A DNA stretch of 64,000 bases from a virus: IMG/VR virus record IMGVR_UViG_3300035181_001203, positions 1-64,000 of that record; one strand, given 5' to 3'. The notes below the pieces were generated by a model. It did not search any database. It saw nothing but the letters and a program-made list of their open reading frames with translations, and was not told where the DNA came from. The position numbers were made by a program, and so were the translations under genes. Numbering within the stretch: the stretch's first letter is position 1; each line of letters begins with the position of its first letter. Shown here piece after piece: positions 1,557 through 18,555 of the stretch.

Positions 1557-3319
1557 AGTGAACCAAGATTATAACTAATATTATCCAAAGCAAAAATAGC
1601 TTGGGTTAATTGCGTTTCATCTATATTGAATAAAGTACGATTCATACGTTTAATGATTAATAGTTTACATAGACGATCTAACATTTCATATAGATCAGGA
1701 ATTAAAAGTTTAAATCGTTTAATATTATTATAAGTAACAAGATTTAAACCTAAAGCTAAGTCAATATTAGACTTATCGCCACTTGCTAAAGCTACTTTTA
1801 AAAGATCTGAATCTTCTGTAATTTTATTAATTACTGATGCCATTTTAGTTAATTTTTCATCTTTAACTTCTTCTTTACTTTCTTTTGCATTCCCTTGGAA
1901 AGTATAAACACCATCTTTTTCTGCATTCATTAAAGCATATCTAGCATCATCATGAGATAAGCCACATCTTACTAAAACGACTATTGCATCATTTTTACCT
2001 AAATCTTTTAATTTAGTACTATCAATACCACTAATTCCCGCATCATTAATAGTAAATTTATTATTAAGCTGTTTTGTAATCTTAACTGTCAAACCAGCAT
2101 TTTTAATTACGTCTTCAGGAGTTCTAATCCAATCAGCATGCATATCATCTGGATATACTTTTACTAAATTAGCAAAAGATGAAATTAAATAATTTTTAGG
2201 ATCTAAAGGTATAATTGTTTTAATATCAGAAGAAGTTCTAAGATTAATATTATCAAGAGAATCAGTTAATACGGAATAAATTTTATCTCCACCCATATTG
2301 GATATACTATTAATATAGAATGGACCATAAAAATTATCGCCAATAACAATACCAGCATAATCACCAGCTTTGGCTTGTTCAGTATGAATTTCCATTCCTC
2401 CATCTTGGTTTTCTCTTGCAACTAAAGAACCCATATATCGTGGCAAATATTTACCACATTCTGTTATAATAATATTGCTATCAGTGGAATTATTTTTTTC
2501 GGTTAAAGAAGATAATCTAAAATGATTAAATGAACGAGCTTTAACATACTCTCCATTTATATCAACAAATCCTATTCTATTTTTAGTTTGTTTAAAATTA
2601 TTTTTTAACTCTTTTTTATCTATCTCTAATACAACTTTAGGAGGCATGCTTGAAATAATCATATCTTTATCATACATTAATTTTGTAACAACTTCTTTTC
2701 CAAACTTTTTAGCAAATTCAGATAATTTATATTCTACGTCTGGATTTTTAATATCTCTTACAACTATTGGTTTATTAGAAGAAGCTTCTTTAATAAATAC
2801 TCTAGCTACATACTCTTCGTCATTACTTGGAATATTTCTATTACAAAATTCTTCAATAATTTCAGGGTATTCTTCAGCAATCTTCTGAAGAGTATCTTTA
2901 TGTTTTTCAATAAAATTAATTTTGATATCGCCTGTATCCTCAAAAAGCGATGCCGTTTTAAGAAGTTGTCCCCTTTCAGATTGGGATACAAGTTTAAAAG
3001 GCCACGTTCGTTTTTCTATTAGATTAATGGAATTCTCTGTTAGTGGCAGATACTTCCCATTGTCAATATAAATATCTAATGGATTTAACTCGTATTCATC
3101 AATAATAAAAGGAATACGTTGTGGCTTTCCAATCATAGAGATATAGCCTACGGCATTTCCTTTGATTGGATCAACTTTGGCAAATGTTACATCGCCAACC
3201 AATTTTGAAAGCGTCGGAAATTTGGAAATCAGATGATTTACAATCTGATCACCCCAAGAATTAGAATCCGATGTTAAACGGACACTAGTGTTAACGGAAA
3301 ATAAATCGCTTAATGACAT
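1553..3319 (-). CDS. Putative virion/head protein rich in KxA motifs
   Basis: Likely start ATG 3319 (GGAG upstream). Contains LLKTAS, LQKIAE, FIKEAS, VIKNAG, LTKMAS, LLKVAL. Confidence 0.55.
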   Translation of the reverse strand: MSLSDLFSVNTSVRLTSDSNSWGDQIVNHLISKFPTLSKLVGDVTFAKVDPIKGNAVGYISMIGKPQRIPFIIDEYELNPLDIYIDNGKYLPLTENSINLIEKRTWPFKLVSQSERGQLLKTASLFEDTGDIKINFIEKHKDTLQKIAEEYPEIIEEFCNRNIPSNDEEYVARVFIKEASSNKPIVVRDIKNPDVEYKLSEFAKKFGKEVVTKLMYDKDMIISSMPPKVVLEIDKKELKNNFKQTKNRIGFVDINGEYVKARSFNHFRLSSLTEKNNSTDSNIIITECGKYLPRYMGSLVARENQDGGMEIHTEQAKAGDYAGIVIGDNFYGPFYINSISNMGGDKIYSVLTDSLDNINLRTSSDIKTIIPLDPKNYLISSFANLVKVYPDDMHADWIRTPEDVIKNAGLTVKITKQLNNKFTINDAGISGIDSTKLKDLGKNDAIVVLVRCGLSHDDARYALMNAEKDGVYTFQGNAKESKEEVKDEKLTKMASVINKITEDSDLLKVALASGDKSNIDLALGLNLVTYNNIKRFKLLIPDLYEMLDRLCKLLIIKRMNRTLFNIDETQLTQAIFALDNISYNLGSL

Positions 3320-14495: not shown

Positions 14496-14523
14496 GCAAA
14501 AATATATGGCTTTTTGTTATAAT
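14496..14523 (+). promoter_or_regulatory. Conserved promoter motif GCAA-N15-TGTTATAA (copy 1)
   Basis: GCAAAAATATATGGCTTTTTGTTATAAT followed by GGAGG RBS. Confidence 0.7.
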
Positions 14524-14542
14524 ATATTTGGAGGCTATTTAT

Positions 14543-15853: not shown

Positions 15854-15865
15854 AATTTTTCTCAT

Positions 15866-15940
15866 CCTCCTGTAGCTTAATGGATTGAGCAGCGCCCTTC
15901 TAAGGCGCGGGTCTAGGTTCGATTCCTAGCAGGAGGACCA
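15866..15940 (+). tRNA. tRNA-Arg(TCT)
   Basis: CCTCCTG/CAGGAGG acceptor, GCGCC-CTTCTAA-GGCGC anticodon arm, CCA. Confidence 0.95.
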
Positions 15941-15944
15941 GTTC

Positions 15945-16134
15945 ATTTTGCAATTTTGATACCTGAGCGATTGTAACTCCCCACTATAGGGATAATCACT
16001 TAAGCCCATTGCAATATCGCAATAGTTTTCATGCTAACCGTGTATTCAATCGGGAGGATGACATTGGACTTCGAGACTCCAGACTAGATTTGCAAATGCC
16101 ATGCTTTTGGCTGAGTATCAATTTATTGCAAAAT
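15945..16134 (+). ncRNA. Putative structured RNA, ~190 nt
   Basis: Closing stems ATTTTGCAAT/ATTGCAAAAT and TTGATAC/GTATCAA enclose internal hairpins; no ORF. Confidence 0.45.
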
Positions 16135-16155
16135 ACTATATTTATTTGTTATAAT
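16128..16155 (+). promoter_or_regulatory. Conserved promoter motif GCAA-N15-TGTTATAA (copy 2), driving large ncRNA
   Basis: GCAAAATACTATATTTATTTGTTATAAT; no RBS or ORF follows. Confidence 0.7.
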
Positions 16156-16159
16156 ATAC

Positions 16160-16975
16160 ATGGGAGAGTATAAACTTTGGAATATTATGGTCTAGGTTTC
16201 GTCAACCTAGTTAATACCTCGATGACAGAGCTATAGAGTCCCACTTTCTGCGGAATTGTGGATTGGCTTTATAGATGAATGGGGAGCCATAATAACCACG
16301 GAATATACTTTCCATAAAGTTTGAAGAGTTCTTTTCAAAAACTCTGTGTTTGGCGGTAGATGAATGACCGTTCCCCTCATAATAGCTTGATTGGGGTTAT
16401 GAGAATGCTGAAGATCAAGCGTTTGACCGTATCGAATAACGGTCTTGTGATTCCCCACAAATAAACAAGAGGGAGCCACCGCTAGGGCTTGCCGTGTTGA
16501 CAAGCGCGCTACTAGGTGGACAAGCAAGTAAAACACATAAGGTGTTGGTCTGCTTACCACAGACTACGGGTTAAAGAATTCCCGTTAAACTTGCAACAGC
16601 CATATATAGATAGGTCTATCGGCGGATAGGTTTATCGAAAATATGGCTCAACTAGTTCAGTCTCGCAAACTGAATTAGTTGCCAGGGCTTGCTAATTAGG
16701 GACGCCTAATAGCAAGAACCTGGGAAACGTTTATCAGTGGCGATTCACTGATGGGTTAAGAAGTTAGCCTGTAAGACCTTTCTATTCTAACGAATAGTAG
16801 GCAAAAAAACTTCAGATACCAACGCCAAGCCTACCTCATCAGGCCGCGTTGAAAATATGGATGAGGGAGTTGCCGGACCTAATAGAAACCGGATAGGGAT
16901 AAGTGCATTTAGAGTTGCAACTCTAAGCCCGAACATATTAAGCCCGAGCAAATGCAAATACTCGGGCGCTTTTCT
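16160..16975 (+). ncRNA. Large multi-domain structured ncRNA, ~810 nt, unassigned
   Basis: Visibly GC-richer than coding DNA, nested long-range helices, many hairpins, own promoter, 3' hairpin plus U-rich tail. Confidence 0.7.
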
Positions 16976-17094: not shown

Positions 17095-17182
17095 GCGGCT
17101 GTGGCGGAATCGGTAGACGCTACAGACTTAAAATCTGTCGTAGGTAAACTACATGCCGGTTCGAGTCCGGCCAGCCGCACCA
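17095..17182 (+). tRNA. tRNA-Leu(TAA)
   Basis: GCGGCTG/CAGCCGC acceptor, ACAGA-CTTAAAA-TCTGT, long variable arm, CCA. Confidence 0.95.
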
Positions 17183-17195
17183 AAAAATACACCAA

Positions 17196-17700
17196 GGATT
17201 GAGAGCTTGCTTAAATGCAAATCTACGGATGCTCGAAACTGATCGTCAATGGTGGTAGCCCGATAAGATTAACTCGGGCAAACTTCACGTTCTCAATTCC
17301 AAGTCTGACGAACGGAAGTGTAATGACTTGGGTAAGGTCCACGCACTTTAAGACCTTTGGGGGTAGGGACAAGTGGATTAAAACCCCTCGTGCAAGTTTG
17401 GGAGACTGTAAAGATGCTTAAGGCATCTGTAAGCTGATTCAAAGGCCCTTGAGTAAAGGCTGTAATTTAATGGAAGCGCGGCATCCATTTTAGTTTCGTA
17501 AGGGGGGAGCGAAAGCTGAGAACCTTGTGCGAGATATGCCGATTAACAAGAAAGGTAGCCTAAGCTTATAAGTTAAGACCACTTCCAGGGTGCAAGGCTC
17601 TGGCTTGCATTAATGCAGACATTAAGTAGGCGTTTCATGAAACGCACAACTTAATACCGATAAAAGTTCTGCAATAGCCAATCAATTCGGTGATATTGGC
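17196..17700 (+). ncRNA. Large structured ncRNA, ~510 nt, between tRNA-Leu and tRNA-Lys, unassigned
   Basis: Multiple helices plus a long-range loop pairing GGAAGTG/CACTTCC; no credible ORF. Confidence 0.65.
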
Positions 17701-17709
17701 AAACTTTAT

Positions 17710-17786
17710 GGAACCTTAGCTCAGTTGGTTAGAGCATCTGACTTTTAATCAGAGGGTGCCGGGTTCGATTCCCGGAGGTTCCACCA
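17710..17786 (+). tRNA. tRNA-Lys(TTT)
   Basis: GGAACCT/AGGTTCC acceptor, TCTGA-CTTTTAA-TCAGA, CCA. Confidence 0.95.
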
Positions 17787-17788
17787 AT

Positions 17789-18123
17789 AACCAAGTGTCC
17801 TGCATTCCAGGACTCGATATGCATAATCGCAGCTTGGTTTTTCGGAGAAGAGACTTACCGTGAGGAAGTCAACAAACTGGTGTTAAGGGATTACACCTTC
17901 TCCGAATAGAATCGCTATTAAATTCTGGTGAAGATTTAATAGCAAGCTTGTTGTCTGCTAGTGGCAACTGAAAAAACTCTTCTTACAGGAAGAGTTTAAA
18001 CTAGCTATCAAATCCTGGTTATTAGGAATGACAAAAAGGTGTAGTCTGACAGCTACATTCCCACAAATCATTCGCCTTGTCAGGGGAAACCGAAATCAAT
18101 ATGATTTCCGGCAGGATTTGATA
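17789..18123 (+). ncRNA. Series of small structured RNA elements
   Basis: Closed domains at 17789-17839, 17841-17906 and 18006-18123, plus three simple hairpins. Confidence 0.5.
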
Positions 18124-18520: not shown

Positions 18521-18555
18521 AAAAAAGGCCCCGAAAGGGGCCTTCTCTTTTTTTT
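18521..18555. terminator. Bidirectional intrinsic terminator
   Basis: A6-GGCCCC-GAAA-GGGGCC-TTCTCTTTTTTTT between the convergent RNA island and tail genes. Confidence 0.85.

Follow-up and report, generated by a model that had tools for sequence, protein, structure and literature searches.

A Probable Structured RNA of 527 nt in the tRNA Operon of an Uncultured Phage Shares a 106-nt Core with a Counterpart in a Related Phage

The window analyzed here, a 64 kb (64,000-nt) stretch of DNA, is the first part of a 112,653-nt phage record in IMG/VR (IMGVR_UViG_3300035181_001203), which is ~72% complete. The phage genome has a GC content of 31.8% and codes for tail and baseplate proteins, a large RNA polymerase, and a sigma factor. 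A plus-strand tRNA operon runs from ~14.9 kb to a strong intrinsic terminator (18525–18544, plus strand) detected by a terminator scan, and comprises, in order, tRNA-Ser, a 187-aa ORF, tRNA-Arg, a 1154-nt gap, tRNA-Leu(UAA), an element of 527 nt, tRNA-Lys(UUU), a 356-nt gap, and tRNA-Met and tRNA-Gln. The same scan found no terminator-like site inside the element on the plus strand. The two tRNAs that the sequence-only reading had placed on either side of a large non-coding RNA were both recovered by ARAGORN on the plus strand: tRNA-Leu(UAA), with an encoded CCA, forms the 5′ border (17095–17182; 60.6 bits with the Rfam tRNA model), and tRNA-Lys(UUU) forms the 3′ border (17710–17786; 73.4 bits with Rfam). 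A consensus scan identified a promoter-like site on the plus strand (16126–16155), with TTGCAA and TATAAT separated by 18 nt and with a TG, which probably starts the transcript through tRNA-Leu and the element. A promoter-like motif, TTTGTTATAATATA, occurs twice (14511–14539 and 16143–16171), heading both parts of the island. Many sites on one strand of G001, a related phage, also match the region at ~16126–16163, which therefore probably represents a phage-specific promoter consensus.

The element itself (17183–17709, plus strand) is a non-coding, GC-enriched segment of the tRNA operon, and is probably a new structured RNA. Its GC content of 43.5%, compared with 31.8% for the genome, falls within the top 2.7% of the 527-nt windows of the genome, and the enrichment extends over the 5′ part (42%), the conserved core described below (47%), and the 3′ part (42%). 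The earlier claim that the stretch is non-coding is supported. It lies between tRNAs of the same strand with no terminator between them, and a related phage has a counterpart of nearly equal length. The predicted minimum-free-energy fold of the whole element (−151.4 kcal/mol) gave a z score of −2.09 against dinucleotide shuffles, 4 of 100 of which folded as well, and the opposite strand folded about equally (z −2.35). Folding support for the whole element is modest and not strand-specific. Lower scores were obtained for the sub-domains 17196–17299 (z −3.46) and 17621–17655 (z −4.6), the borders of which were picked after the stems had been seen.

All of the stems that the sequence-only reading had listed, together with a GGAAGTG/CACTTCC complement, were located where it had placed them, and most of these stems appear in the minimum-free-energy fold of 17183–17709. 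In the 5′ part, GGATTGAGAGC (17196–17206) pairs with GTTCTCAATTC (17289–17299) over 11 bp, two of which are G-U, and closes a multi-stem domain (17196–17299). This helix, proposed earlier, is present here and has no equivalent in the related phage, making the domain specific to this phage. The core contains three predicted hairpins. Hairpin B (17299–17331, z −2.6) has a 7-bp stem, formed by CCAAGTC (17299–17305) and GACTTGG (17325–17331), and a 19-nt loop with GGAAGTG at 17314–17320. Hairpin C (17334–17357, AAGGUC/GACCUU) holds CACUU in its loop and has a mean pair probability of 0.89, as predicted in the context of the related phage. Hairpin D (17359–17387, GGGG/CCCC), taken from the predicted fold, holds AAGUG in its loop. 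The core is followed by a hairpin recognized from the sequence (17412–17428, AGATGC/GCATCT) and by a long irregular stem-loop with a GAAA-capped tip (17457–17562; pair probabilities 0.6–0.99, z −2.35), which includes the CGGCAU/AUGCCG arms (17479–17484/17536–17541). Further downstream lie a CACUUCC box (17580–17586), which by sequence complementarity is proposed to be the distal site contacted by the loop of hairpin B, a two-tier ATTAAGT/ACTTAAT hairpin (17621–17655), and a terminal GCCAAU/AUUGGC hairpin (17677–17700) 9 nt before tRNA-Lys, evident in the sequence and weak in the fold. All of these features are on the plus strand.

Relatives were reached through neighboring proteins (the sigma factor, a baseplate protein, and the RNA polymerase), yielding L003, L012–L021, and L024–L030, and three related phage records were found by this route; the 187-aa ORF as a probe yielded none. 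The sigma-factor search returned 81 proteins, 80 of which were relatives from other assemblies (Logan, ENA, and JGI), several of them encoded on contigs of 18–170 kb. A BLAST search against deposited phages gave tRNA matches only, and the best sigma-factor relatives among deposited phages, in a tblastn search, were only ~33% identical, indicating a phage group without a cultured member. Among the relatives, nhmmer and BLAST located the element in L019 only. The RNA polymerase of L003/G001 is 70% identical to that of the window phage, and its island contains nothing resembling the element. The spacer before tRNA-Lys in L003 (Glu–Lys) contains a free-standing 131-aa HNH endonuclease ORF (2194–2589, minus strand, 30% GC), and was rejected as a homologue; its occupation of this spacer suggests that mobile cargo inserts into the slots between tRNAs. 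We also scanned sequence collections with exact 18- to 20-mers. The core-loop k-mer matched only the L019 record among viral contigs, the core-junction k-mer had no match among metagenome contigs, and a 20-mer from the 3′ part had none among viral contigs. Three candidates were discarded: a single core-junction match in genome contigs that had no extension and was attributed to chance, a 23-nt match of the hairpin D loop in three viral contigs that lay inside a protein ORF and was likewise attributed to chance, and a weak match of a core covariance model in L012 that lay inside a coding ORF.

The L019 phage, whose RNA polymerase is 70% identical to that of the window phage, has a 525-nt spacer at its tRNA-Glu/tRNA-Gln junction (L019 404–928, minus strand). 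This counterpart is non-coding, has a GC content of 41% against 33% for its locus, and gave a fold z score of −4.14. A block of 106 nt, corresponding to the three-hairpin core (17282–17387, plus strand), is 100% identical in L019 (696–801, minus strand). On both sides of this core, the flanks of the two elements aligned no better than shuffled sequences. Most tRNAs across both islands are only 71–83% identical, and complete identity over 106 nt therefore suggests a recent transfer of the core rather than long-term constraint. These comparisons show that the 106-nt core passes between phages as an intact, discrete unit. The sharp borders of the core show that RNA modules are swapped between phage tRNA islands, and this has a bearing on the spread of such RNAs. 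In addition, the two elements occupy different tRNA junctions, and tRNA-Leu(UAA) and tRNA-Lys(UUU) of L019 are separated by 14 nt only; for these reasons, the element looks like an accessory, movable cassette. Other RNA genes of the two islands showed their own patterns. tRNA-Arg(UCU) (15863–15940; L019 2583–2660) is 100% identical in a block that ends exactly at the tRNA 3′ end, representing a second sharply bounded identical RNA unit, of 78 nt. The tRNA operon of L019 also includes a full tmRNA (2713–3120, minus strand; tag peptide reported by ARAGORN, Rfam 90.9 bits), and the window island has none.

The longest ORF in the element, a 68-aa frame with an ATG start (17215–17421, plus strand), covers the core and was judged not to be a gene. 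It found no homologue when used as a probe for homologous loci, and no match in Pfam or PHROG. Its GC3 of 0.50 compares with 0.11–0.23 in the genes of the phage, and its codon score is no different from that of sequence read out of frame. Moreover, the L019 sequence interrupts this frame on either side of the core and provides no upstream start. Although an ATG-started ORF of 68 codons spans the core, it is hardly credible that the element encodes this protein, with its lack of homologues and family matches, its codon usage unlike that of the phage genes, and its interruption in L019; nor does the ORF explain the conservation, a possibility that had been raised with the original description of the stretch. 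Pfam found no trace of a protein in any frame of the element, and alternative genetic codes or recoded stops opened no long frame.

The detailed stem architecture proposed at the outset is not supported by the comparison. The identical core is predicted to fold differently in the window and L019 contexts, and imposing the three-hairpin form carries a penalty of +4.7 kcal/mol in the former context and 13.4 kcal/mol in the latter; according to these models, loop–loop contacts would have to repay this cost. Being identical in both phages, the core carries no information on its own fold, and with only two sequences no statistical covariation test is possible. The predicted folds have several junctions but differ between the window element and its L019 relative (n = 2), and a tree-edit comparison of the predicted 3′ folds found them no more alike than shuffles (p ~0.25–0.3). 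A pair of 17-nt hairpins, at 17412–17428 in the window and 427–443 in L019 (element positions 486–502), has common AGAU/AUCU pairs and three compensatory inner pairs, and lies in different places in the two elements. Their likeness could be due to chance or to a shuffled module.

Each element carries, in its unrelated 3′ part, a sequence complementary to the loop of hairpin B (core positions 25–43), which includes AACGGAAGUGUA. This complement is CACUUCC (7 bp) in the window, and UACACUUC (8 bp) and ACGCUUCCGUU (11 bp, including one G-U) in L019. When the flanks were dinucleotide-shuffled, the 7-bp match of the window was reached in 7% of trials and the 8-bp match of L019 in 5%. Both matches together occurred in 0.4% of shuffles, and on overlapping loop bases in 0.1% (joint p 0.004 and 0.001, respectively), values to which an approximately four-fold correction applies, the loop having been chosen after looking. 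The L019 island has a single GAAGTG and a single CACTTC. The window island has two of each, as two pairs, and the CACTTC outside the CACUUCC box sits in a separate local hairpin. The long-range GGAAGUG/CACUUCC pairing that the sequence-only reading had proposed, for which the 7-nt match alone gives p ~0.07, gains support from the complementarity of the L019 3′ part to the same loop. These matches suggest that the hairpin B loop pairs with the distal CACUUC box. In the L019 3′ part, the core-loop motif AACGGAAG is present a second time (element positions 248–260 and 361–373), and this copy pairs locally with CUUCCGUU, the very sequence that might otherwise pair with the core loop. Since CUUCCGUU has two candidate AACGGAAG partners, alternative pairings are possible in L019.

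A second correspondence outside the core involves a perfect palindrome of 16 nt in each element. In the window, it occupies 17630–17645, forming the inner part of the 17621–17655 hairpin with a 6-bp stem and a CAUG loop; in L019, it occupies 465–480, with a 6-bp stem and a CUAG loop. The palindromes are located at element positions 448–463 (window) and 449–464 (L019), 72 and 69 nt before the next tRNA, respectively. The 112.6-kb genome contains five perfect palindromes of at least 16 nt, three of which are pure AT repeats, and the other two lie in this RNA island. Between the window and L019, two stem pairs are changed on both sides (G-C to A-U and U-A to G-C), and the central loop dinucleotide changes from AU to UA, leaving the loop self-complementary. 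All eight symmetric positions pair in both palindromes, with three changed on both sides, and no slid control matched this; a shuffle control on the two sequences reached the observed value in 50 of 500 trials. The paired changes are suggestive, though not proof. In the OLE and GOLLD RNAs, switching of a loop between palindromic tetranucleotides is evidence for symmetric intermolecular kissing loops, which were shown by cryo-EM (PMC12286853). On the basis of this precedent, we infer that the palindromic hairpin may bring two RNA copies into symmetric contact. Equally, a dimeric protein could recognize such a perfect palindrome in the DNA, and kissing through a loop of 4 nt would be a tight fit unless the three adjoining U-A pairs open.

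Comparison of the two elements shows a putative family of ~525-nt modular spacer RNAs, with two known members, in uncultured phages that have their own RNA polymerase and sigma factor. It also shows several non-random features common to both elements outside the core. We tentatively favor the explanation that the element belongs to a small new family of modular phage tRNA-island RNAs, which tRNA processing would release and which may self-pair through the palindromic loop. The element would be co-transcribed with tRNA-Leu and tRNA-Lys, and an RNA of ~0.5 kb would be freed when RNase P and 3′ end-trimming enzymes process the tRNA ends. The loop-to-box pairing would then compact the RNA, and the palindromic loop, CAUG here and CUAG in the relative, may let two copies pair symmetrically. 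Instead of serving as a message or a simple spacer, the RNA might act as a folded, possibly self-associating particle like ROOL, GOLLD, and OLE. A bolder version, which we regard as rather unlikely, holds that the element represents a new ~525-nt RNA class, in which the transferable core docks on the CACUUC box and the RNA self-assembles by palindromic kissing. Such a class would form a third, independent lineage of ornate, self-associating phage RNAs beside ROOL and GOLLD, and the neighboring palindrome-bearing RNA may share its particle.

The observation that the block of 100% identity is sharply bounded, with flanks that align only at shuffle level, raises the alternative that the 106-nt core is the sole functional part, a mobile small RNA gene or module, and that the other ~420 nt are filler or independent modules. 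The location of the core at different tRNA junctions in the two phages is in line with this alternative, as are the tRNA-Arg block, a second sharply bounded unit of 100% identity (78 nt) in the same islands, and the absence from L019 of the helix that closes the 5′ part in the window element. However, the core resides in both phages within a host of ~525 nt that is GC-rich and non-coding, both sets of flanks complement the same core loop, and a related perfect palindromic hairpin is positioned at the same distance from the next tRNA in both. The shared length, complement, and palindrome therefore make unrelated filler improbable, and we consider a core-only function unlikely.

We judge it just as unlikely that the stretch is non-functional mosaic DNA, derived from recombination debris or foreign, GC-richer DNA acquired in a variable slot of the tRNA island, with any function of the palindrome exerted at the DNA level through protein binding or cutting. 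The cargo of these slots does vary widely, from 14 nt in L019 to the HNH endonuclease gene in L003, and the closest other relative lacks the element. The collection scans with two 20-mers from different parts of the core matched the L019 record only, or nothing, and the folding z scores are modest on both strands. Neutral DNA should nevertheless drift AT-rich in a genome of 32% GC, whereas both elements hold 41–44% throughout, and no remnant of a protein gene was seen in any frame. The symmetry of the palindrome has survived three paired changes, and the loop-to-box complementarity is kept within unrelated flanks. If the stretch were mere recombination debris, it would be of little consequence.

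A cis-acting role, in which a self-folding spacer lets the adjoining tRNAs fold and be processed independently, or times their processing, and has no function after release, appears quite improbable. The closed domains begin and end near the tRNA borders, and the terminal hairpin lies 9 nt before tRNA-Lys in the window and 14 nt before tRNA-Gln in L019, as expected for an insulating spacer. The L019 tRNA-Leu and tRNA-Lys are processed with 14 nt between them, making a 0.5-kb insulator unneeded, and insulation does not account for the 100% conserved core or the palindromic loop.

ROOL and GOLLD are large structured RNAs found beside phage tRNA genes, and form protein-free cages of unknown purpose. 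The sole hint of such a homo-oligomeric assembly in the element is its palindromic loop, which is still a palindrome in L019. The element resembles ROOL in size and setting, being 527 nt long, located in a phage record, and flanked by tRNA genes. To search for known families, we used the 4227 models of Rfam 15 at the gathering score and then at E ≤ 10 with permissive filters. No family was detected in the element at either threshold, whether the query was the 64-kb window, a 5.5-kb region, or the 527 nt alone. The ROOL model RF03087 (gathering score 99.1 bits) had no match in the whole 112.6-kb record; the control genomes were also ROOL-free, and the sensitivity for ROOL is thus not shown by them. 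The group II intron domain model RF01998 had no match, and no tmRNA, RNase P RNA, group I or II intron, self-cleaving ribozyme, or riboswitch was found in the element by Rfam or ARAGORN. As a positive control, the same Rfam search recovered the genuine tmRNA in the L019 island with 90.9 bits, and it gave no match in the L019 counterpart either.

ROOL RNAs are ~580 nt in length (mean 581 nt), originate from phages or prophages, and occur near tRNA genes (PMC5737381, PMC12286853). The ROOL-likeness noted previously accordingly stands for size and tRNA context, and fails for membership, with no match at E ≤ 10 to RF03087 or any other Rfam family. The prospect that the element is a divergent member of ROOL or GOLLD is vanishingly small: its length and phage tRNA-island setting are compatible with ROOL (PMC5737381, PMC12286853), but none of the 4227 models matched with permissive filters at any scale from the 527 nt to the whole record, and the L019 counterpart likewise had no match. 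Membership is not supported, and the likeness is limited to size and context. Like ROOL, the element would be a large non-coding RNA of ~0.5 kb encoded by a phage or prophage; such RNAs frequently adjoin tRNA islands, and the two are probably transcribed together (PMC5737381, PMC12286853). Several multi-stem domains, long-range loop pairings, and a possible symmetric loop contact are further similarities, as predictions in the element. Unlike ROOL, it shows no sequence or structure-profile similarity at E ≤ 10, and the six junctions and three pseudoknots of ROOL are not demonstrable in it. ROOL is an evenly diverged family, in contrast to two members with a 100% identical core and unalignable flanks.

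With GOLLD, the element shares an origin in phages or prophages near tRNA arrays and the combination of a conserved and a variable part (PMC12286853). GOLLD also has self-interacting kissing loops with a covarying palindromic loop sequence (PMC12286853), the equivalent of which is a prediction in the element, and tRNAs are sometimes embedded in GOLLD, a feature of its own (PMC12286853). GOLLD RNAs usually exceed 800 nt and have a universally conserved 3′ region, whereas the element is 527 nt in length and matched no Rfam model at E ≤ 10. T4 RNAC and RNAD, which are only slightly longer than tRNAs, also differ from the element, with its spacer of 527 nt and shared core of 106 nt, in a comparison by description only. 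They are small, stable non-tRNA RNAs from a phage tRNA cluster, which the element fits by genomic context, and their roles are unknown (PMC3014915). Together with ROOL and GOLLD, they are the closest precedents in terms of function. If the favored reading of a modular, self-associating RNA is correct, the element would be a third, unrelated RNA in the niche of ROOL and GOLLD with a symmetric-loop signature of the same kind. This would suggest that phage tRNA islands in general carry self-assembling RNAs as an accessory, and its short length (0.5 kb) would make it an easily synthesized test case.

The island contains another large non-coding RNA upstream of the element (16316–16972; L019 1319–1980, minus strand), which is 92.6% identical between the two phages over 664 nt and is partly duplicated in L019. 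This neighbor resembles the element in its operon, its GC enrichment, its occurrence in the two phages, and its possession of a perfect palindromic hairpin, the stem of which covaries in a third phage. It differs in sequence, in its 92.6% identity throughout rather than a 100% core with unalignable flanks, and in its presence in the third phage, from which the element is absent. Its palindrome is a perfect one of 18 nt (16909–16926), and the L003 version has another stem with the same UUGCAA center. A perfect 14-nt inverted repeat, TTCCATAAAGTTTG/CAAACTTTATGGAA (16310–16323 and 17700–17713), would join the 5′ region of the upstream RNA to a segment made up of the final bases of the element and the initial four of tRNA-Lys; the 1.4 kb enclosed in this way includes tRNA-Leu. 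By our own estimate, chance alone would yield ~0.03 such repeats in an island of 4.1 kb, and the 3′ end of the L019 element shows no long-range repeat that corresponds to it. Immediately beyond the element and tRNA-Lys, a stretch of ~120 nt (17787–17909; L019 1008–1140) is ~83% identical between the two phages and represents a conserved spacer module.
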